Shown here: in pieces, positions 2,362 to 44,976 of the stretch | Layout: each line of letters starts with the position of its first letter | Position numbering within the stretch: position 1 is the first letter of the stretch | Sequence record: NC_028903.1 | DNA length: 64,000 nt | Reading direction: 5' to 3' (one strand) | From: Escherichia phage 172-1 | Translations under genes and position numbers: made by a program | The notes under the pieces: model-generated | Database searches by the model: none | Told to the model about the DNA's origin: nothing | What the model saw: only the letters and a program-made list of their open reading frames with translations

Positions 2362-2751
2362 TTATTCCCTAGAGCTATTATCGAACACTAAATCGCCACA
2401 ATACATAGGATTGGCATACCATTTTGGCACCCCTTCGCTCTTACTCTGAAAGTAAGTCCCACTATACAGCGGAACATAATTCTTCTTAAGGGCACGTTTA
2501 GCAAGTCGCTCGCTTTCTCCAATGGCTTGCTTAGTCATCGGATTTTTATCACGAATCAGCTTTACATAACGTTTATAAGGTTTCTCCTGTTTTAATAGTA
2601 CCGGAATCCACTCAAACTGGTTCTTTTGTCTTATCACCTGTTCAGCGGTCAGTTTTCGTTGGGCCATTCTATTTATCACGGTATCCGCAACTAAAGCCTT
2701 ACATGCGGTTGGCTGGTTCCCTGCCTCATAATAAATAGTCAATGTCAACAT
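2362..2751 (-). CDS. SleB/CwlJ-like cell wall hydrolase
   Basis: 129 aa; IYYEAGNQP...VADTVINR and NQFE motifs typical of SleB hydrolase domain. Confidence 0.55.
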   Translation of the reverse strand: MLTLTIYYEAGNQPTACKALVADTVINRMAQRKLTAEQVIRQKNQFEWIPVLLKQEKPYKRYVKLIRDKNPMTKQAIGESERLAKRALKKNYVPLYSGTYFQSKSEGVPKWYANPMYCGDLVFDNSSRE

Positions 2752-2864
2752 TAGCTGGGCCGTTGTTATCAGAACTTGCTACCTCCTGTTTTGTTGTTTC
2801 AATAAACACCCTCGAAAAGATGCTTATAGAAACACCCATCCCTTTCGGAATAGGTGCTATCTTT

Positions 2865-3182
2865 CTATTTATAACTTACACCATCACCTTTTACAGCTAT
2901 TGTAAGTGGCGATCTGGTGTTTAATGGGGTGAAGTTCATGTCCAGCTCATATCCCACTTTGAGAATCAATTTCAACAATGTGTCGATGGAGAACTTTGAA
3001 AGCTGTCCATTCATGAGGCTACTAATCCTCGGCTGGCTAACACCTAGCTTCTCTGCGGCAACACACTGCGACCAACCTTGATCACGAATTAACTTCGTAA
3101 GAATAATGATCAGCTTGGACTTCAATGAAAGCATGTTGGCCTCTACAGGGTCTGTACTTATCAGCTCGAACGGGTTTTTCAT
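2865..3182 (-). CDS. XRE-family HTH protein resembling HigA-type antitoxin
   Basis: 105 aa; HTH core AAEKLGVSQPRISSLMNGQ followed by FSIDTLLKLI; ATG at 3180-3182. Confidence 0.6.
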   Translation of the reverse strand: MKNPFELISTDPVEANMLSLKSKLIIILTKLIRDQGWSQCVAAEKLGVSQPRISSLMNGQLSKFSIDTLLKLILKVGYELDMNFTPLNTRSPLTIAVKGDGVSYK

Positions 3183-3206
3183 ATAAAATTCCTATACAAT
3201 AGGCAT

Positions 3207-3232
3207 AAAAAAGCCCCAGCCGTAGCCGGGGC
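3207..3232 (-). terminator. rho-independent terminator-like hairpin
   Basis: GCCCC-a-GC / GC-c-GGGGC stem preceded on plus strand by A6, giving a T6 tail on the minus transcript. Confidence 0.45.
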
Positions 3233-3381
3233 GGTTATTAACGTGATACTGCTTCCATGAATCCTATCATAAGTATCAATAAGGTGATAATAACACCAAA
3301 AAGCATACCACATAGGAAGAAAAATCCACCTTCCCCTAAATATGAAATAGCTGATTCCACGGATAACTCCTACAGCAACGC

Positions 3382-3403
3382 AAAAAGCCGCTCAAAGGCG
3401 GCT
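3382..3403 (-). terminator. rho-independent terminator
   Basis: AGCCGC / GCGGCT stem with 6 nt loop, U-run on minus transcript; follows gene 3484..3927. Confidence 0.5.
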
Positions 3404-3483
3404 ATGTGGAAGCTTCAAATGGGGAGAGGGCACGACGCGACAGAAAGAGCGTCATAGTACTAAAAGAGGGGACTGTATTCCTA

Positions 3484-3927
3484 CTACTTAACCCTTGCCT
3501 CTTTGATGGGGTCAATGTATTTCTCAACGCCCCACTTGTGTTTACTGTCTGCGTAGAAAACATCAGGCGCACACTGGCTACTTTTAGGGAATGCTTGAGG
3601 GTCTTTCGTGCTACCTTTAAACTTCTGCTTACCACGGGTGCGACCATTACAGAAGATTTCTAACTTCTTCTCCTCTTCTGTTTTAGCTCCCCCGCTCTTT
3701 AATAAAGAACGTTTATGATCGGCTAACAATAACGCATCAGCACGATGAACGCGATGGCCTACACGCTTTGCCACACTAGAAGGAATATGAGATTCAGCCT
3801 CAGCCTTTGCAGCACGACGTTTTAAACTGCGCTTACTGACGTGATTGGTTGCCTTTGGCTTCTCTTTCTCCAGTTCAGAGATAGAAAAACAACGCCCGCC
3901 TTTCATGCTGATTTTTGATTTAGCCAT
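3484..3927 (-). CDS. basic hypothetical protein
   Basis: 147 aa, K/R-rich; no recognisable domain. Confidence 0.45.
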   Translation of the reverse strand: MAKSKISMKGGRCFSISELEKEKPKATNHVSKRSLKRRAAKAEAESHIPSSVAKRVGHRVHRADALLLADHKRSLLKSGGAKTEEEKKLEIFCNGRTRGKQKFKGSTKDPQAFPKSSQCAPDVFYADSKHKWGVEKYIDPIKEARVK

Positions 3928-3996
3928 TGTCTTATTCCTTTTAGTGATAAGTTATATCGGGCAAGCCCATCAAGGTGACAGGCTTGAACAAATAAC

Positions 3997-4206
3997 TCAA
4001 TCAAGTAAACCGAATGACTTCCAACTGCGTAGAAGGATTGTACCATCATCCATAGTCACGCATAACTTTAGTAGTTTCTTATTGGCACTGCTTACCGTTG
4101 TAATTCGTCCGGTTGTGCATTTACCTTTATTGCTGTAAAGATATATAACACGACGGCCTAACAAACGAGATGGCGCTTTCTTAAACTCTGAAATATTAGT
4201 GATCAT
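3997..4206 (-). CDS. hypothetical protein
   Basis: 69 aa ORF in tightly packed operon. Confidence 0.4.
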   Translation of the reverse strand: MITNISEFKKAPSRLLGRRVIYLYSNKGKCTTGRITTVSSANKKLLKLCVTMDDGTILLRSWKSFGLLD

Positions 4207-4427
4207 AATGCTTGATACCTTTGAATATGTTCAATACGGGTAGATTGAGCAAATGACGCTTTAACCGCCATCTTTCTAACTTCTTCCTTACGTTGGTTAG
4301 TGTGCACAGTATCCCAATGATTGTTATCACGTTGGCGCTGTAATATCTTACTACATTTGCGATGGTTCCCCGTGCTGCGATGTTTCTCACAAATAGGACA
4401 CTTGCCAAAATTATTACTGAATATCAT
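4203..4427 (-). CDS. hypothetical protein with Cys/His cluster
   Basis: 74 aa; CPICEKHRSTGNHRKC suggests a small zinc-binding motif. Confidence 0.4.
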   Translation of the reverse strand: MIFSNNFGKCPICEKHRSTGNHRKCSKILQRQRDNNHWDTVHTNQRKEEVRKMAVKASFAQSTRIEHIQRYQAL

Positions 4428-9565: not shown

Positions 9566-9605
9566 CACGGGGAAAGAATAACGGGGAGTAGGCACGGGGA
9601 AAGGT
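9566..9605. repeat. three tandem ~14 bp repeats (c)ACGGGGA(AAG)
   Basis: cacggggaaagaat / aacggggagtagg / cacggggaaaggt. Confidence 0.55.
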
Positions 9606-13308: not shown

Positions 13309-15552
13309 ATGGCTAAGCAAAAATATAGTGAAGAGGTGTTGGACGAGTTACGTGTTGACCTTCAACGTCGTTTTAATTACGCTCAAGGCTACGTAGACAC
13401 AGCTGTTAAGGGCTATGCTCGTGAAGCTTGGGAATATTTCTATGGTAACTTACCTGCACCAGTAACTGCTGGCAGCTCTAGTTGGGTAGATCGTACTGTT
13501 TGGGAATCTGTTAACGGTACACTGCAAGATATTATTAACGTATTCTGTTCTGGTGATGAAGCAGTTACTTTTGTAGCTGACAACCAACAGGACTCTGATG
13601 CTGCTGATGTAGCAACTAAATTAGTTAACCAAATTCTTCTGCGTGATAATCCGGGATACAATATTATCTCCTCTGCTGCACAAGAATGTCTGGTTACTCG
13701 TAACTCTTTTATCAAATACTATTGGGATGAGCACACTTCTACTCAAACTGAAGAAGCTGAAGGTGTACCACCGGAAGCATTGGCTGCATATGTTCAGGGA
13801 TTAGAAGCTGGTGGACTCAAGAATCTGGAAATCTTCACTGAAGAAAACGAAGATGGTACAGTTGATGTTAAAGTTACTTACGAACAAACTGTTAAACGTG
13901 TGAAAGTTGAATATGTTCCTTCAGAGCAAATCTTTGTTGATGAACATGCTACCTCTTTTGCAGATGCACAATACTTCTGTCATCGTGTACGTCGTTCTAA
14001 AGAAGATCTGGTTGCTATGGGCTTCCCTAAAGATGAGATTGAAGCATTCAACGACTGGACAGACACGATGGATACCACTCAATCTACAGTTGCTTGGTCT
14101 CGTACTGACTGGCGTCAGGACATTGATGCTGACATTGGTACAGATACTGAAGATATCGCTACTATGGTTTGGGTTTATGAGCACTACATCCGTACTGGTG
14201 TTCTAGATAAGAATAAAGAATCTAAACTCTATCAGGTTATTCAAGCTGGTGAGCATATCCTTCACACTGAAGAAGTAACTCACATTCCGTTTGTAACCTT
14301 CTGTCCGTATCCGATTCCGGGTTCCTTCTACGGTCAATCAGTCTATGACATTACGAAAGATATTCAGGATTTACGTACCGCGTTAGTTCGTGGTTATATT
14401 GATAACGTCAACAATGCTAACTATGGTCGATACAAAGCTCTTGTTGGTGCATACGATCGTCGCTCTCTGCTTGATAACCGTCCCGGTGGAGTGGTTGAAA
14501 TGGAACGTCAGGACGCTATTGATCTGTTCCCATACCATAACCTACCTCAAGGTATTGACGGCCTCCTAGGCATGTCTGAGGAGCTTAAAGAGACACGTAC
14601 CGGTGTAACTAAACTTGGCATGGGTATCAACCCTGATGTGTTTAAGAATGATAACGCTTATGCAACCGTAGGATTGATGATGAATGCTGCACAGAACCGT
14701 CTCCGTATGGTATGTCGTAACATTGCTCACAATGGTATGGTTGAATTGATGCGTGGTATTTACAGCCTTATCAGAGAAAACGGTGAAGTTCCTATTGAGG
14801 TACAAACCCCTCGTGGTATGGTTCAGGTTAACCCGAAACAATTACCAGCTCGTCATAATCTTCAAGTTGTTGTAGCCATCTCTCCTAATGAGAAAGCAGA
14901 ACGTGCACAGAAACTGATTAGCTTGAAACAGCTGATTGCAGCAGATGCACAGTTAGCACCTCTCTTCGGTTTGGAGCAAGACCGTTACATGACTGCACAG
15001 ATCTTTGAGTTGATGGGTATTAAGGACACTCATAAATACTTACTGCCTCTGGAACAGTATCAGCCTCCTGAGCCGTCTCCGATGGAAATCCTCCAGCTTG
15101 AGATGACTAAAGCACAGGTTGAGAACGTACAGGCTTCTTCTCAGAAGATGATTGCTGATGCATTCGACCAGCGTGAACGTACTACATTCGAACAGCAGAA
15201 AGCTGCGGATGAATTAAGTCTGCGTCAGGAAGAGTTGCAGTTCAAGCAAGAAAATGCAGCAGATGCTATGACTCTGGAAAACCGTAAAGAAGATAACAAT
15301 GCAACTCTGGAACAAGCTAAGCACAAGTTAGCTCTTATGCAACAGCAGGTCCGTCAGTATGAGTCTGTACTGAAAGAATTGCAGATGGTTATGGAACATC
15401 AGGTTGACCAAGAGAAGATTGTTCAGCAAACTCGTGTTCAGGATAAAACTTTGGAACTCCAGAAGAAAGAAGCAAATGTAACTAAGAAAGAGCAACAAGC
15501 TTCTCTCAAAGATTCACGGATTCCAGGCAAACGTCTTGGAAGTAAAAAGTAA
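13309..15552 (+). CDS. portal protein
   Basis: 747 aa, immediately after terL; size and order typical; C-terminal coiled coil. Confidence 0.75.
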   Translation: MAKQKYSEEVLDELRVDLQRRFNYAQGYVDTAVKGYAREAWEYFYGNLPAPVTAGSSSWVDRTVWESVNGTLQDIINVFCSGDEAVTFVADNQQDSDAADVATKLVNQILLRDNPGYNIISSAAQECLVTRNSFIKYYWDEHTSTQTEEAEGVPPEALAAYVQGLEAGGLKNLEIFTEENEDGTVDVKVTYEQTVKRVKVEYVPSEQIFVDEHATSFADAQYFCHRVRRSKEDLVAMGFPKDEIEAFNDWTDTMDTTQSTVAWSRTDWRQDIDADIGTDTEDIATMVWVYEHYIRTGVLDKNKESKLYQVIQAGEHILHTEEVTHIPFVTFCPYPIPGSFYGQSVYDITKDIQDLRTALVRGYIDNVNNANYGRYKALVGAYDRRSLLDNRPGGVVEMERQDAIDLFPYHNLPQGIDGLLGMSEELKETRTGVTKLGMGINPDVFKNDNAYATVGLMMNAAQNRLRMVCRNIAHNGMVELMRGIYSLIRENGEVPIEVQTPRGMVQVNPKQLPARHNLQVVVAISPNEKAERAQKLISLKQLIAADAQLAPLFGLEQDRYMTAQIFELMGIKDTHKYLLPLEQYQPPEPSPMEILQLEMTKAQVENVQASSQKMIADAFDQRERTTFEQQKAADELSLRQEELQFKQENAADAMTLENRKEDNNATLEQAKHKLALMQQQVRQYESVLKELQMVMEHQVDQEKIVQQTRVQDKTLELQKKEANVTKKEQQASLKDSRIPGKRLGSKK

Positions 15553-15561
15553 GGACGTCGA

Positions 15562-15798
15562 ATGAACATTAGGCATCAATTCAATAAAGAGCACGCCGCC
15601 GCTTTGGCGGCTCTCAATCTTAACGGCAGTCTTGACGCAGCATTAGAGGCATTGAAAGAAAGACTCATGACAGAGATAGTTCAAACTGAACCTCATGAGA
15701 ATAAGAAACGCGAAGATTGTTATCAAAAGTATAAAATGGTGGGTAGCTTAAAAGAGGTCATAAAAGCTGCTATCAATAGTGCAGGAGATGTTTCATAA
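15562..15798 (+). CDS. hypothetical head-module protein
   Basis: 78 aa between portal and scaffold. Confidence 0.4.
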   Translation: MNIRHQFNKEHAAALAALNLNGSLDAALEALKERLMTEIVQTEPHENKKREDCYQKYKMVGSLKEVIKAAINSAGDVS

Positions 15799-16883
15799 TG
15801 CCACAAGATAATTATATTGACCCGAACGATTTTAAATCTTTCCTCCAACTGGATGACCTGAAAGGCTCTTTTAAAGAAGAGCTTGGTCGATTAGAATCTG
15901 AACAAGAACCAGAAGTGGACATTGACGACGAGTTCCCGGAAGATACCGGTGACAACTTCGACTTTGATACCGACCTTCTCGGTGAAAGCGATGAGCTTAA
16001 GTTCGAAGATGAAGATGGTTGGGAAGATCATGATGAGGAAGGCGAAGTCGAAGAAGATGGGGATGACTCTGACGAAGGTGATGAAAACACTGAAGCAGAA
16101 GAGGAAGACTCAAGCGATGCAGGATATGAAGATGATTCTGCTGACGGTGATGGTGAAGTCTTTGATGTAGACTACGAAACCGTTATCACCCTTCCTGATG
16201 GACGTGAGATGACTATTGAAGAACTCTCCAATGGCTATCTTACTGGTGCTGACATGACTGAACGAGAATCAACTCTTCAGCGTCACATGGAAGCATTTGA
16301 GGAACGTGTAGTAGGTTTGAAGGATGTATTAGAATTAGCGTCTTTAGAAGCAGACCGAGTAATTGAAGATTACAACGGATTTGATTGGGACAAGCTTGCA
16401 GTAGAAGATCCTCAAGCATATGTTGAAAACAAACGTTTCCTAGAGAAGTACACAGCTCGTCGTAACCAGCTTGAACAGGCTCAGATGCGTGTTAAGCAGG
16501 AAGCAGCAGCTAAAGAACAGGAAGCTTTCCAAGCCAAAAGTGTTGAGTGCGTTAATATTCTGAAACGTGAGATTCCAAATTGGGATGAAAACTTATATCA
16601 AAACTTAATGCAATATGCAATTGACTTAGGTGCTACTGAAGAAGAAGTATTGAAGGAAAACCGTCCGTCTATTTTCCTAGCTCTCCATAAAGCATACCAA
16701 TTTGATAAAGGTAAGCAGCAGGTGATGGCTAAGATTAAACGTCCCGGTGCTCCACGCAAGGTTGTGAAGTCTGATGCTGCAAAGTCTCGTACTTCCAATA
16801 AGCCAGACAACGCTAAGGTTGCCAAGGCATTCGCAGAGGGTCGCGTTAGTCACGAAGACGCATTCAAATTCCTCGTAGATTAA
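15798..16883 (+). CDS. putative scaffolding protein
   Basis: 361 aa, extremely acidic N-terminus, helical; sits between portal and capsid genes. Confidence 0.5.
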   Translation: MPQDNYIDPNDFKSFLQLDDLKGSFKEELGRLESEQEPEVDIDDEFPEDTGDNFDFDTDLLGESDELKFEDEDGWEDHDEEGEVEEDGDDSDEGDENTEAEEEDSSDAGYEDDSADGDGEVFDVDYETVITLPDGREMTIEELSNGYLTGADMTERESTLQRHMEAFEERVVGLKDVLELASLEADRVIEDYNGFDWDKLAVEDPQAYVENKRFLEKYTARRNQLEQAQMRVKQEAAAKEQEAFQAKSVECVNILKREIPNWDENLYQNLMQYAIDLGATEEEVLKENRPSIFLALHKAYQFDKGKQQVMAKIKRPGAPRKVVKSDAAKSRTSNKPDNAKVAKAFAEGRVSHEDAFKFLVD

Positions 16884-16924
16884 TCGACAAATTAATTATT
16901 TAATAGTATAGGAGCTAACATAAC

Positions 16925-17986
16925 ATGGCTAATCCAACTTTATTTGTATCGTATGACCAGAATGGTAAAAAACTTTCTTTTGCTAACTGGATTTCTGTTC
17001 TGTCCCCTCAGGATACTCCGTTCGTATCTATGACCGGTAAAGAGTCTATCAACCAGACTATCTTTAGCTGGCAGACCGATGCACTGGCAAGCGTTGATGG
17101 TAATAACGCACACGTCGAAGGCTCTCGTGCTGAAGACGGCGAAATGAAACCGACTGTTATCAAGTCTAACGTTACTCAGATTCTGCGTAAGGTTGTTCGT
17201 GTTTCTGACACTGCTAACACCACCGCTAACTACGGTCGTGGTCGTGAACTGATGTATCAGCTGGAGAAGAAAGGTAAAGAGATCAAGCGTGACCTCGAGA
17301 AAATCCTTCTGTCCGGTCAGGCTCGTACCGACGTTCTGGCTGACCAGTATCTGACTAACTCCGCAGCTGATCCGACTCAGATTGGTAAGAACGACACCCA
17401 TGCAGCTCGTAAGACTGGTGCATTCCAGTTCCTGTGTGCTCACGGCGGTCTGACTGGTGGCGTTGTTGACAAAACCAAGAATGGTCCTGCTGACCCAGAT
17501 ACCGGTGCTGTAACTGTTAAAGTTGCACAGAACACTTCTAACCCGGCTACTAACATCGGTTTTGATGAAGCAGATATCTTTGATATGACTCTGCAACTTT
17601 ACACCGCTGGTTCTGAAGCAGATATCATCATGATTAACCCGGCTCATGCTAAGATCTTCGCTGGTCTGCAAGAAAACACTCAGGGTTCACGTAAGCGTAT
17701 CTTTGAGAACACCAAGCAGTTCATCTACGAAGTTAACAGCATCACTGACCCGCTGGGCCAGAGCTACAAAATCATCGTTAACCGTTGGATGCCTACCGAT
17801 GCAGTTTACTTCTTCCGTAGCGCTGACTGGACCCAGATGGTTCTGCGTGCTCCGAAACGTACCGAACTGGCAAAAGATGGTTCTTACGAAAAATGGATGA
17901 TTGAGATGGAAGTTGGTCTGCGTCACCGCAACCCGTATGCTTCCGGTGTTCTGTTCACTGCTGCGGGAAAGGCAGTGGCGGCGTAA
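16925..17986 (+). CDS. major capsid protein
   Basis: 353 aa; canonical position after scaffold; slippery heptamer near its 3' end. Confidence 0.8.
   Translation: MANPTLFVSYDQNGKKLSFANWISVLSPQDTPFVSMTGKESINQTIFSWQTDALASVDGNNAHVEGSRAEDGEMKPTVIKSNVTQILRKVVRVSDTANTTANYGRGRELMYQLEKKGKEIKRDLEKILLSGQARTDVLADQYLTNSAADPTQIGKNDTHAARKTGAFQFLCAHGGLTGGVVDKTKNGPADPDTGAVTVKVAQNTSNPATNIGFDEADIFDMTLQLYTAGSEADIIMINPAHAKIFAGLQENTQGSRKRIFENTKQFIYEVNSITDPLGQSYKIIVNRWMPTDAVYFFRSADWTQMVLRAPKRTELAKDGSYEKWMIEMEVGLRHRNPYASGVLFTAAGKAVAA
17965..17971 (+). other. -1 programmed ribosomal frameshift slippery site G GGA AAG
   Basis: Canonical X XXY YYZ heptamer in capsid frame, 13 nt before capsid stop; -1 frame stays open to 18513. 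Confidence 0.6.
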
Positions 17987-18513
17987 CAGTAGATACCATA
18001 ACTGTTAGTCCTTCGTCGGTTGCAAGCCTTCCGACGGGGGCTACTCAGCAGTTTACAGCTACAGCACAAATGAGTGATAGCTCCACATCAACAACTGGAT
18101 TTGTTTGGTCCGTTGAGGGTGGTGGGGCTATTTCTGTTTCTGGACTGTACACTGCACCGAGTGCGTCGCAAGAAACCCCGATCACAGTGAAAGCTACTAA
18201 AGGTGGTAAATCCGGTACATCTACAATCTCAGCTATTGCTGACCCTGAACCTACAATTGTAAGTCGTGGTCCTATTGCTGGTAAAGTCGGTGGTTCTACT
18301 ACTGCCTTCTCTACAATGTTTACTGTAACCAATTCTGCTGGTAGTGATTATGATTTTGTTGTAACCCCTACTGAAGCAGGTGCTGTCAGTGCAGCTGGTC
18401 TTTTGACTCTTGCTGATGCTGCTACTGGTACAGTCTCTGTTGCAGCTACACACAAGACTAAACCTCTTGTAACAGCCACTTGTGAATTCACAGGTGTTAC
18501 CCCCAAAGCCTAA
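17965..18513 (+). CDS. capsid C-terminal Ig-like extension reached by -1 frameshift
   Basis: -1 frame open from 17905 to 18513; encodes Thr/Ser/Gly-rich beta-strand repeats resembling bacterial Ig-like (Big_2) domains; first ATG only at 18070. Confidence 0.55.
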   Translation, partial: GKGSGGVTVDTITVSPSSVASLPTGATQQFTATAQMSDSSTSTTGFVWSVEGGGAISVSGLYTAPSASQETPITVKATKGGKSGTSTISAIADPEPTIVSRGPIAGKVGGSTTAFSTMFTVTNSAGSDYDFVVTPTEAGAVSAAGLLTLADAATGTVSVAATHKTKPLVTATCEFTGVTPKA

Positions 18514-18519
18514 AACTAA

Positions 18520-18548
18520 AGCTGCCTTCGGGTGGCTTTTCTTGTTTT
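18520..18548 (+). terminator. rho-independent terminator
   Basis: AGCUGCC / GGUGGCU stem (two G-U pairs), UUCG loop, U-run. Confidence 0.5.
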
Positions 18549-18580
18549 AAGACCTATACAAGCTAGTGTGTAATGTATAT
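18549..18580 (+). promoter_or_regulatory. phage middle/late promoter (AAGACCTA-N14-TAATGTATAT)
   Basis: Core at 18571-18580, 33 nt upstream of ATG 18613. Confidence 0.55.
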
Positions 18581-18612
18581 TCTTTGTCTACATATAACAA
18601 GGAGGACAACCT

Positions 18613-19365
18613 ATGGCGATGCCAGAAGTGCAAAACCCGATTAACACGTATGGCTGGCTTAAGAAAGCTGTTGCCTTGTGGGCCGATCGAGACGATGATG
18701 AATTTGTTAATCAAATTCCAAACTTTATTAACTTTGCAGAGAAAGAGATTTATCGTAACTTACGTATCCCTCCTCTGGAAAAAGAAGTGTATTTAGATAT
18801 TAAAGATGGAGTAGCTTACATTCCTCCTGATTACTTAGAAGCTCAGTGGATGATGAGAGCCAAAGATGGTACAATCTTCCAAGTAACGTCTCCTGAAGAG
18901 ATTAGCTATCGTAGACAGCATGGAACAATTAACCCATCTCATTGGAATAACCAACCTGTTAACTTTGCTCGTTTCGGTAGTCGTTTCATTTTCTATCCTA
19001 GCATCGAAGCAGATACTCCTGTTTATCCTGATGATGGAAGCCCTTTGATTCCAGCAGAAAACTCAGTAATTCTCAGTTATTATGCAGACCCACCGGAATT
19101 CCATGAAGATACAGACACTAGTGCTATCCTTACTATTGCACCAGAACTTCTTCTATATTTCACTCTACGTCATGCTTGCTTGTTTGTTCAAGATGATAAT
19201 GGAGTTCAGAAATGGTCTGCATTAGGAAAAGCTATCCTTGATGAAATGGTAGAGCAGAATAAGAAACAAGAGTACTCAGGTTCACCTATCGCAATTCCGA
19301 ATAACATGACTCGGCTTCAGAGCAGCTTGCCTGACATTTATGGTATTCGTACTTCTCGTGTATAA
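18613..19365 (+). CDS. virion structural protein (possible head-tail adaptor)
   Basis: 250 aa, own promoter and RBS; between capsid and tail fibre genes. Confidence 0.4.
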   Translation: MAMPEVQNPINTYGWLKKAVALWADRDDDEFVNQIPNFINFAEKEIYRNLRIPPLEKEVYLDIKDGVAYIPPDYLEAQWMMRAKDGTIFQVTSPEEISYRRQHGTINPSHWNNQPVNFARFGSRFIFYPSIEADTPVYPDDGSPLIPAENSVILSYYADPPEFHEDTDTSAILTIAPELLLYFTLRHACLFVQDDNGVQKWSALGKAILDEMVEQNKKQEYSGSPIAIPNNMTRLQSSLPDIYGIRTSRV

Positions 19366-44893: not shown

Positions 44894-44902
44894 TATACAT
44901 TA
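44894..44902 (-). promoter_or_regulatory. phage promoter core TAATGTATA (leftward, upstream of SSB)
   Basis: Read on minus strand ~60 nt upstream of ATG 44834. Confidence 0.45.
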
Positions 44903-44943: not shown

Positions 44944-44976
44944 GGTAGTAGATATAACACACTAGTAATGTATATA
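44944..44976 (+). promoter_or_regulatory. phage promoter (GGTAGTAG-N14-TAATGTATATA), rightward into ORF-free AT-rich region
   Basis: Core at 44966-44976; no plus-strand ORF downstream. Confidence 0.45.

Follow-up and report, generated by a model that had tools for sequence, protein, structure and literature searches.

Programmed -1 ribosomal frameshifting late in the major capsid gene is no new feature among the phages closest to the one described here: papers and database annotations already report it for phiEco32, SU10, Paul, Privateer and YF01. The feature note of phage Paul in GenBank gives a joined coding sequence with 'Frameshift at GGGAAAG' and also names the PhiEco32 major capsid product (PMID 18294652); sources citing the original work report the trans-frame capsid product of phiEco32. 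YF01 has a joined coding sequence both in its record and in its paper. For Privateer, two bands are seen by SDS-PAGE and the minor capsid form was detected by mass spectrometry. For SU10, no long form is seen by cryo-EM or SDS-PAGE (PMC9509320; PMC9965538), an absence put down to a 1-nt insertion that truncates the -1 frame, and the 352-aa short form makes up the solved capsid. The SU10 mass spectrometry table lists gp9 with 23 peptides (78.1% coverage) and '9+10' with 22 peptides (50.3%); since the number of covered residues is about equal for the two entries, it is not proof of peptides from the Ig part. More generally, Ig-like modules occur at the C termini of virion proteins, often by way of a +1 or -1 frameshift, as the work of Fraser et al. 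2006 is cited in PMC5009743 and PMC9965538, and the passages on these domains in the same two papers propose an accessory role in adhesion.

Here we analyse a window of 64,000 nucleotides from Escherichia phage 172-1 (NC_028903.1), a phiEco32-like Kuravirus with 99.8% identity to Escherichia phage NJ01. A first-pass annotation, made from the letters of the window, had proposed that an Ig-like extension is appended to the capsid protein by frameshifting, as known elsewhere; our analysis supports this reading, which the five published cases show not to be new. What we add is a conserved downstream hairpin with compensatory changes, alternative and non-canonical shift sites in related genera, and gaps in the annotation.

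Two-frame layout of the capsid gene

The 0-frame product (Table 1) matches Pfam family PF17236 (SU10_MCP) over residues 12-344 (E 2.4e-76; 257.5 bits against a threshold of 24.1) and the solved SU10 major head protein, gp9 (7z45_A; E 1.6e-230). The homologous gene is named major head or capsid protein in the records of phiEco32, SU10 and Paul. In the -1 frame no stop occurs from 17905 to 18510 and a TAA follows at 18511-18513, so that translation reproduces the open frame of 17905-18513 claimed at first pass. Slippage at the heptamer is predicted to yield a product of 529 aa and 55.98 kDa (computed), with the junction ...TAAGK-GSGGVTVD..., beside the short form of 38.82 kDa; as predicted products, the 529-aa fusion and the 353-aa capsid protein of the first-pass annotation both follow from translation of the ORFs. 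The junction peptide TAAGK-GSGG is not obtainable with trypsin, because the junction Lys inside it is a tryptic site. With chymotrypsin, the peptide expected across the predicted junction is TAAGKGSGGVTVDTITVSPSSVASL. Readthrough of the TAA was rejected, a second 0-frame stop (TAG) lying two codons further on.

Table 1 Features of the capsid locus of phage 172-1 (positions within the window)
Feature	Position	Strand	Details
Major capsid protein gene, 0 frame	16925..17986	+	353 aa, 38.82 kDa, HK97 fold, SU10_MCP family
Slippery heptamer G GGA AAG, -1 shift site	17965..17971	+	In X XXY YYZ frame of the capsid ORF
Extension in -1 frame, 180 codons + TAA	17971..18513	+	Two tandem Ig-like beta-sandwich domains, predicted
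0-frame stop TAA, ends short capsid form	17984..17986	+	4 codons past the heptamer
Candidate hairpin H1, 7-bp stem	17984..18007	+	17984-17990 pairs with 18001-18007; MFE fold
Conserved hairpin H2, 11 pairs, 11-nt loop	18008..18041	+	18008-18019 with 18031-18041; RNAalifold
ATG-initiated ORF, 147 aa	18070..18513	+	'Ig domain containing protein' in NJ01 annotation; apparent truncated gene call
Intrinsic terminator-like hairpin, 9 bp, loop TTCG, T-rich tail	18518..18549	+	Directly 3' of the extension stop
Phage sigma (gp36-type) late promoter motif TAATGTATA	18571..18579	+	Upstream of adaptor gene at 18613

Of the six copies of GGGAAAG in the window, the one at 17965-17971 alone combines the X XXY YYZ frame of a long ORF with an extended -1 reading: 180 aa follow there in the -1 frame, versus 1-33 aa at the other five copies, which were rejected as frameshift sites. 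Checked against the ORF at 16925..17986, the canonical heptamer is in frame, as claimed at first pass, and it is indeed close to the capsid stop, at a distance of 12 nt (4 codons) before the TAA rather than the 13 nt given there. It is unchanged in 15 of 15 Kuravirus loci and in both Privateervirus loci, at 57% capsid identity. Heptamer and stop are 9 or 12 nt apart in all Kuraviruses examined (12 nt in 172-1 versus 9 nt in the phiEco32 subgroup) and directly adjacent in Privateervirus. In E. coli, G_GGA_AAG is listed as highly shift-prone (PMC5009743). The same heptamer, G GGA AAG, is the shift site of lambda G/GT (PMC3296357 Table 1), where about 96% of reads stay in the 0 frame (PMC3296357).

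A programmed -1 ribosomal frameshift that yields a minor, Ig-tailed form of the Kuravirus major capsid protein is very probably the correct reading of this layout. Most ribosomes would pass G GGA AAG without changing frame and terminate four codons on; their product would be the HK97-fold capsid protein of 353 aa. Others, a minority, would slip one base back, with the P-site tRNA-Gly moving from GGA to GGG and the A-site tRNA-Lys from AAG to AAA; these ribosomes would pass the TAA and add 180 residues folding as two tandem Ig-like domains. The 529-aa long form would then be built into the prolate head in minor amount, as a subunit with surface decoration; going by SU10, a head should hold about 715 capsid copies. 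We infer that slippage takes place in 172-1 and that the long form is incorporated into its virions. Given the identical heptamer in lambda G/GT, the rate of shifting in 172-1 is probably a few percent.

The arrangement recurs, with a conserved 0-frame TAA, in 15 independently sequenced Kuravirus genomes, among which capsid identity is 92-99%. The -1 extension is 178-545 aa long in 14 of the 15 loci: 180 aa in 172-1, 178 aa in phiEco32 and 543-545 aa in YF01 and Paul, with 11 aa in the SU10 record. Substitutions within the -1 ORF are concentrated at third codon positions.

Structure of the extension

The extension is Thr/Ser/Gly-rich and about 180 aa long, as the first-pass annotation had described it (180 aa, of which T, S, G, A and V make up 66.7%). 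Its AlphaFold (AF2) model has a mean pLDDT of 95.5 and is nearly all beta-strand, arranged as two Ig-like domains that span approximately extension residues 5-90 and 93-180. A Foldseek search with this model returned the tandem Big domains of LigA (E 5.8e-11, TM 0.57) and many further Ig/Big matches, including the BIG2 domain of the phi29 capsid protein gp8 (32% identity over 95 columns). By sequence, phmmer aligned the first Ig domain with residues 343-418 of phi29 gp8 (E 0.001), and the extension matches PHROG 13745, 'Ig domain containing protein' (E 2.9e-80). The Pfam family Big_2 (PF02368) scored 19.8 bits over fusion residues 356-428, below its gathering score of 22.8, and the second Ig-like domain had no Pfam match; precomputed PF02368 hits exist on some homologues of the extension. 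The sub-threshold match begins at fusion residue 356, ahead of ATG 18070. Thus, of the Big_2-like character suggested at first pass, the Ig-like fold stands by structure prediction and fold search, and Big_2 membership by sequence does not.

Terminator and promoter

Immediately downstream, a terminator and then a promoter had been claimed, and both are found (Table 1), the terminator as a terminator-like hairpin with a T-run at 18518-18539 and the promoter as one of the phage-sigma (gp36) type. The SU10 and Paul records annotate a terminator at the same place. There are 6 copies of the motif TAATGTATA in the window where 0.71 would be expected, and both the phage-sigma motif and this intergenic location have been described for phiEco32 and SU10 (PMC4281155). 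A sigma-70 consensus scan of the + strand downstream of the extension found nothing; a sigma-70 promoter was rejected there, with the phage-sigma motif in its place.

RNA structures around the shift site

Elements that stimulate frameshifting would be expected 5-9 nt 3' of the heptamer, as a hairpin or pseudoknot, and/or upstream of it, as a Shine-Dalgarno-like sequence. No stimulatory structure was found at the canonical 5-9 nt spacing downstream of the heptamer in 172-1. By eye, the alignment has no conserved Shine-Dalgarno-like stimulator of the dnaX type in the 20 nt that precede the heptamer; GGTG at 17946-17949 was rejected in this role, as it is GGCG in relatives. To our knowledge, the lambda G/GT heptamer functions with no known stimulator.

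Two hairpins lie further downstream. H1 starts 12 nt past the heptamer in 172-1 and 9 nt past it in the phiEco32 subgroup. It is 100% paired across 11 distinct sequences with every pair invariant, and it therefore offers no covariation evidence, because none of its pairs varies; it also competes with an alternative pairing of 18000-18006 with 18047-18053. H2, which starts 36 nt downstream of the heptamer, is paired in 97.5% of cells and appears in all single-sequence MFE folds. Three of its pairs show compensatory changes, one being seen as GC, UA and AU. The whole consensus structure is 98.5% paired, versus 26-50% after sliding. H2 is a candidate stimulatory or regulatory RNA element, or else a structure unrelated to frameshifting.

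The SU10 paper proposed a stem-loop that encloses the heptamer (CTGCTGC...GCGGCGG). This stem-loop also folds in 172-1 (z -1.9); it was rejected as a classical stimulator because its 5' arm would be inside the ribosome when the heptamer fills the P and A sites. The H1-H2 element differs from it. A three-way junction closing right past the heptamer in the MFE fold of 172-1 was likewise rejected as a conserved structure, being absent from the folds of relatives and from the consensus.

Alternative explanations

The Ig-like ORF could instead be a separate gene, started at ATG 18070 or by termination-reinitiation after the capsid stop, whose product would decorate the capsid as a free, non-covalent protein. 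A distinct 'Ig domain containing protein' is annotated in most database records, the capsid stop and the Ig ORF are as close as reinitiation would need, and the SU10 cryo-EM study considered that gp10 might be a minor capsid protein of low affinity (PMC9509320). However, the -1 frame between 17905 and 18120 contains no ATG, GTG or TTG ahead of ATG 18070, and no Shine-Dalgarno core was found in the 20 nt 5' of that ATG, both in agreement with the first-pass annotation. Starts also vary among relatives: the first possible -1 frame start falls at codon 8, 15, 16, 33 or 46 depending on the phage, gene callers begin the Ig-like ORF at four different places, and the position of ATG 18070 is Lys, Leu or Met, with no start codon conserved in the -1 frame. 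Variable sites at the three codon positions number 10/6/22 from junction to ATG and 10/6/24 past the ATG; because the two patterns match, the segment ahead of the ATG appears to evolve as -1 frame coding sequence, and the coding signature reaches back to the junction. In the AF2 model, a start at ATG 18070 (extension residue 34) would remove three beta-strands of domain 1 (E7-13, E25-27 and E29-34). Since the first of these, extension residues 7-13, lies at least 20 residues before that ATG, the 147-aa 'Ig domain protein' is, on the model, a truncated gene call and not an independent gene. The NJ01 records list this 147-aa protein, with no capsid coding sequence and no frameshift annotated. 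Covalent fusions of major capsid protein and Ig domain are moreover known in 7-11 and phi29, and we consider a separate gene very improbable.

Equally, the heptamer and the -1 ORF might be a decaying or dispensable relic, with negligible slippage and an extension that is not usefully made, as is apparently the case in SU10, which propagates with a truncated extension and a uniform capsid. The position of the first hairpin, 12 nt downstream and beyond the usual 5-9 nt optimum, points the same way. Yet the -1 ORF is intact in 14 of 15 Kuraviruses, with substitutions mostly at third codon positions; the number of domains has grown in several lineages, up to 545 aa; other genera show the same arrangement with different Ig modules; and the same bare heptamer serves as the lambda G/GT shift site (PMC3296357). 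A relic is therefore very improbable. The frame change coincides with short G3 and A3 runs, which is all that would specifically favour transcriptional slippage by RNA polymerase, or a sequencing or assembly error within one continuous ORF. Transcriptional slippage is generally supported by homopolymer runs of 7 or more bases, and three-base runs fall far short of this. With the two frames and the conserved 0-frame TAA present in 15 independently sequenced genomes, and the solved SU10 capsid consisting of the 352-aa short form, we give this explanation almost no credence.

Discussion

For annotation, the analysis means a correction: the locus is predicted to encode a capsid protein of 353 aa and, through frameshifting, a fusion of 529 aa. 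The locus would be a further clean case of recoding that sets the stoichiometry of a decorated capsid subunit. Ig-like domains have been linked with adhesion, both to mucus and to cell surfaces, and, following the general proposal for such domains in phages, those of 172-1 may act in weak surface adhesion. Kuraviruses are under development for phage therapy, and a low-frequency C-terminal extension predicted to be surface-exposed would offer a natural display site, comparable to T7 gp10B.

H2, possibly stacked on the invariant H1, may set the long:short capsid ratio in Kuraviruses. Among the SU10_MCP phages, an Ig-tailed capsid subpopulation appears to be reached by interchangeable routes. Next to G GGA AAG in Kuravirus and Privateervirus, the candidate shift sites are C CCA AAA in PJNS034, A AAA AAG in one metagenomic phage and, in Lahexavirus and related phages from metagenomes, G GUA AAG, which is T7-like and carries no annotation. 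Phage 7-11 appears to show a route of another kind, the capsid gene being duplicated into two paralogues, one of them fused in frame. The combined reading, in which H2 (perhaps stacked on H1) tunes the ratio of the two forms and the Ig-tailed subpopulation is reached interchangeably, is a tentative one that we would not yet call probable. Interchangeable routes, if true, would imply that what is selected is the mixed-subunit capsid and not frameshifting as such. Three observations offer a small comparative system for studying why a minority of subunits should be Ig-tailed: the hairpin with compensatory changes, the range of shift sites, and the duplication of paralogues as opposed to frameshifting.

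Comparison with known systems

The nearest counterparts are phiEco32 gp11/gp12, SU10 gp9/gp10, Paul CPT_Paul_009/010 and YF01 gp8, which share with 172-1 the homologous capsid protein, the same heptamer in the same position and the -1 direction. In these phiEco32-like phages, as in 172-1, the Ig-like extension is followed by a terminator and a phage-sigma promoter; they differ from it in extension length, domain number and the heptamer-stop spacer. In Privateer (Privateervirus), the same heptamer ends the capsid gene and the extension (I-set + Big_2) is unrelated in sequence.

Gene 10 of T3 and T7 (10A/10B) also gives a minor, C-terminally extended capsid form through -1 frameshifting close to the 3' end of the gene (PMC5009743; PMC9965538). 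The T3 extension is Ig-like, as is that of 172-1, and a terminator follows gene 10 (PMC5009743; PMC9965538). By contrast, the T7 extension is not Ig-like, and T7 shifts at G GUU UUC and needs a distant element in the terminator (PMC5009743). The 172-1 capsid protein belongs to Pfam SU10_MCP, with the HK97 fold common to it and T7 gp10. Lambda G/GT has the heptamer of 172-1, is likewise translated in E. coli and has a stop soon after the site (PMC3296357), whereas its gene encodes a tail assembly chaperone and not a capsid protein. Bacillus phage phi29 gp8 and 7-11 gp009 resemble the predicted 172-1 long form: in each, a Big_2-type Ig domain comes directly after the HK97-fold capsid portion in a prolate podophage, and in phi29 gp8 it is a related C-terminal BIG2 domain at the same position. 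Salmonella phage 7-11 gp009 combines SU10_MCP and Big_2 in a single 585-aa ORF; because the fusion is in frame in both proteins, every copy of them carries the Ig domain. The trans-frame product of lambda G/GT is an assembly factor, not known to be present in virions, and no structural decoration. Where 172-1 would recode, phage 7-11 apparently relies on a tandem pair of paralogous capsid genes for its two forms. Set against the pattern of Fraser et al. 2006, as the papers citing it present it, the 172-1 locus is one more instance, with no substantial difference.

Shift site and reading frames of the capsid gene

The capsid ORF encodes 353 aa and matches both the Pfam family SU10_MCP (2.4e-76) and the SU10 head protein of known structure (1.6e-230). 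When the frames were checked, the heptamer GGGAAAG was found within this gene, read as G GGA AAG, with the -1 frame open across it, as the first-pass annotation had described. The 0-frame TAA lies 12 nt 3' of the heptamer; the nearby stop of that description thus stands, and its spacing of 13 nt does not. A -1 slip is predicted to yield a long form of 529 aa and 55.98 kDa (junction TAAGK followed by GSGGVTVD) beside the short form of 38.82 kDa, matching the fusion of about 529 aa that had been proposed. The absence of an earlier start and of a ribosome-binding site was also borne out: no ATG, GTG or TTG occurs upstream of ATG 18070 in the -1 frame, and no Shine-Dalgarno core was found 5' of it. 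Apart from trivial details, the earlier description was accurate.

Six copies of GGGAAAG are present in the 64-kb window. The copy at 17965 alone both falls into the X XXY YYZ frame within a long ORF and has a long -1 continuation. The copies at 9570 and 9597 lie 27 nt apart within a 130-codon open frame; they were rejected as frameshift sites, since their frame does not suit canonical slippage and the -1 continuation runs for only 1-23 codons. Both probably belong to a short direct repeat.

Coordinates of features in and around the capsid gene
Feature	Position	Remark
Portal	13309-15552	followed by a small ORF
Scaffolding protein	15798-16883	
Major capsid protein	16925-17986	followed by the Ig-like ORF
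Open -1 frame	17905-18513	TAA at 18511-18513
Heptamer GGGAAAG	17965-17971	
Hairpin H1	17984-17990/18001-18007	7 bp
Hairpin H2	18008-18019/18031-18041	11 pairs
Terminator-like hairpin	18518-18539	with T-tail
Phage-sigma motif TAATGTATA	18571-18579	after the terminator-like hairpin
Adaptor	18613-19365	followed by tail fibre
Exact copies of TAATGTATA	18571, 30204, 35438, 44966 (+); 44902, 51464 (-)	

Fold of the extension

Over fusion residues 356-428, beginning seven residues past the junction, the extension matches Pfam Big_2 below threshold (19.8 versus 22.8 bits), and its PHROGs family is 'Ig domain containing protein'. An AlphaFold2 model built on 21 homologues (mean pLDDT 95.5) displays two beta-sandwich domains, with the first strand formed by extension residues 7-13. 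Against the PDB, Foldseek matched many Ig/Big proteins, such as Leptospira LigA in its tandem Big domains (E 5.8e-11, TM 0.57) and the prohead capsid protein of phi29 (95 columns, 32% identity); by phmmer, fusion residues 351-426 resemble residues 343-418 of phi29 gp8 (E 0.001). The proposed likeness to Big_2 domains is thus upheld by the fold and not by the profile score.

Conservation among Kuraviruses

Across 16800-18700 the window shares 99.8% identity with Escherichia phage NJ01 and 87-98% with about 90 further genomes of Kuravirus, the phiEco32-like prolate C3 podophages, and the local gene order is that annotated in phiEco32, SU10 and Paul. Both the GenBank and RefSeq records of NJ01, the closest to the window, are without a major capsid CDS (L001, NC_018835.1, 3126-4187; window 16925-17986): locus tags skip from NJ01_020 to NJ01_022, no feature lies beneath the tblastn match, and the Ig ORF is called from an internal ATG (147 aa). 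In EcoN5 (L023, MN715356, 499-2049) a scaffolding gene of 516 aa is annotated, versus 361 aa in the window and phiEco32, and megablast matches it to the window in two pieces, a pattern that suggests an insertion.

Fifteen Kuravirus loci from GenBank and IMG/VR were compared. Heptamer and 5' context are retained in every one, a 0-frame TAA lies 9 or 12 nt 3' of the heptamer in each, and indels directly 3' of it come in lengths divisible by three. Of the 15, 14 continue into a -1 extension, 178-545 aa long. Length differences among Kuraviruses (Paul, L015; YF01, L016; SR02, L024; Bas87, L027; E20-1, L028; and L025 and L026) reflect the copy number of the second domain type (motif GPITGK.GG.TTAFTTMFT.TNS..DY.F.VTP) and inserted Big_2 modules, which marks the extension as a modular hot spot.

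Translation of the downstream ORF from its own start is the alternative to frameshifting. The place of the first potential -1-frame start codon varies among the phages (codon 8, 15, 16, 33 or 46); other lineages carry Lys or Leu in place of the Met codon at 18070, and automated gene calls of homologues use four different start points. In the window this ATG is extension residue 34, and a start there would, according to the model, remove three strands of the first domain. Variable columns at -1-frame codon positions 1/2/3 number 10/6/22 between the junction and the ATG and 10/6/24 3' of it; the stretch 5' of the ATG therefore evolves as -1-frame coding sequence. The overall reading, a programmed -1 frameshift appending Ig-like domains to the capsid protein, accordingly holds.

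RNA structure and downstream signals

Twelve Kuravirus sequences were folded jointly with RNAalifold, and the pairs were then counted explicitly. In H2, 97.5% of cells are paired, with compensatory changes at three pairs, one of which is seen as GC, UA and AU. For the two-hairpin structure the figure is 98.5%, versus 26-50% with the 3' partners slid. H1 adjoins H2 and is perfectly conserved; because its pairs never vary, covariation neither supports nor contradicts it, and in some relatives the MFE structure swaps it for an extended H2. H1 begins 12 nt past the heptamer in the window and 9 nt past it in the phiEco32 subgroup. H2 begins 36 nt past, too far for a textbook stimulator, so that any role it may have in frameshifting is putative. 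The stem-loop enclosing the heptamer itself, suggested in the SU10 paper, also folds in the window sequence; it was rejected as a classical stimulator, since the ribosome would unwind it at the moment of slippage.

Both a terminator and a promoter directly after the -1 ORF had been predicted, and a terminator-like hairpin and a promoter motif were found. The promoter is not sigma-70-like; it is TAATGTATA, the phiEco32 gp36-sigma middle/late motif, with six exact copies in the window versus 0.71 expected. The SU10 paper places this motif and a terminator in precisely the same intergenic spacer (PMC4281155). Two copies on opposite strands about 65 nt apart, at 44894-44902 (-) and 44966-44974 (+), suggest divergent promoters.

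Other members of the SU10_MCP family

In Privateervirus (57% capsid identity), TAA immediately follows G GGA AAG, and the -1 extension (I-set plus Big_2) has no sequence relation to that of the window. In Escherichia phage PJNS034 (42% identity; L022, ~3375-3800), C CCA AAA lies two codons 5' of the capsid stop, and the Ig_3/I-set -1 extension is annotated as a separate hypothetical protein. Locus L014 (~3921-4060) has A AAA AAG 3 nt 5' of the stop and a 42-aa Pro/Lys/Val-rich -1 extension.

At 57-66% identity, Lahexavirus LAh_8 and three phages from metagenomes lack a canonical X XXY YYZ heptamer. Common to them is GAAGGTAAAG, read as G GUA AAG, with a P-site G_GU reminiscent of the T7 gene 10 site (PMC5009743). 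Capsid genes of L009-L012 (~3905-3925) and LAh_8 (L029, ~2405-2700) end CTG AAG GTA AAG GCG/CCC TAA. The -1 frames open in LAh_8 and the metagenomic phages code for a pair of Big_2 domains or a single I-set domain; in the record of Aeromonas phage LAh_8, all that is annotated there is a 75-aa 'tail protein' fragment. From sequence, LAh_8 and L009-L012 look like cases of unannotated frameshifting at a non-canonical site.

Salmonella phage 7-11 (L018) instead has tandem capsid genes (1482-2420 and 2501-4258), the second a continuous 585-aa SU10_MCP-Big_2 fusion; this duplication is a predicted non-recoding route to short and Ig-tailed capsid forms. Tandem paralogues also occur in ECO319P1 (L021, 2492-3430 and 3511-4596) and in IMG/VR locus L013 (3001-3945 and downstream). 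In ECO319P1 the second copy (361 aa) ends within a partial match to Big_2; 3 nt past its stop, an ORF of 146 aa begins. The capsid gene of Vibrio phage Vp_R1 has no extension. Given Privateervirus, PJNS034, LAh_8 and 7-11, the covalent capsid-Ig architecture is recurrent in the family, by recoding or paralogy.

Mechanism and comparison with known systems

The window feature is a predicted -1 programmed ribosomal frameshift of textbook type, correctly interpreted and already known for Kuravirus. GenBank lists a joined CDS for Paul, annotated 'Frameshift at GGGAAAG; Frameshift in PhiEco32 major capsid protein product as well (PMID: 18294652)'; YF01 also has a joined CDS, and its paper covers heptamer, -1 frame and Ig-like extension for the entire group. 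Privateer shows two capsid bands, with the minor form detected by mass spectrometry (MS).

In the SU10 record, a 1-nt insertion shortens the -1 extension to 11 aa. It lies 25 nt past the capsid stop (L003, KM044272, ~3195-3200; window ~17999; TGTCTACTG versus TGT-GACTG), shifts the Ig ORF into the capsid 0 frame behind two stops, and represents a genuine loss or else an error of 454 sequencing. The long form was absent from SU10 by cryo-EM and SDS-PAGE (PMC9509320, PMC9965538); its lack in cryo-EM fits the truncation. The insertion also weakens the SU10 MS claim (22 versus 23 peptides), which gives no independent proof of fusion because the gp9 and '9+10' peptide lists are almost equal.

As the best-supported mechanism, tRNA-Gly and tRNA-Lys would slip in tandem by -1 at low frequency, passing the nearby TAA and producing a minor Ig-tailed subunit that would co-assemble with the short form. 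For a head of about 715 subunits, as in SU10 (PMC9509320), we infer that a rate of a few percent with proportional incorporation would give a few tens of long subunits.

The modest additions made here are candidate features: the covarying hairpin and, in related genera, the alternative or non-canonical shift sites and the recourse to paralogues. In E. coli, G_GGA_AAG ranks with the heptamers most prone to shifting (PMC5009743); the same site serves lambda G/GT, with the 0 frame retained in about 96% of cases (PMC3296357). In phi29 gp8, by contrast, the C-terminal BIG2 domain of the capsid protein is encoded in frame, whereas here the extension lies in the -1 frame.
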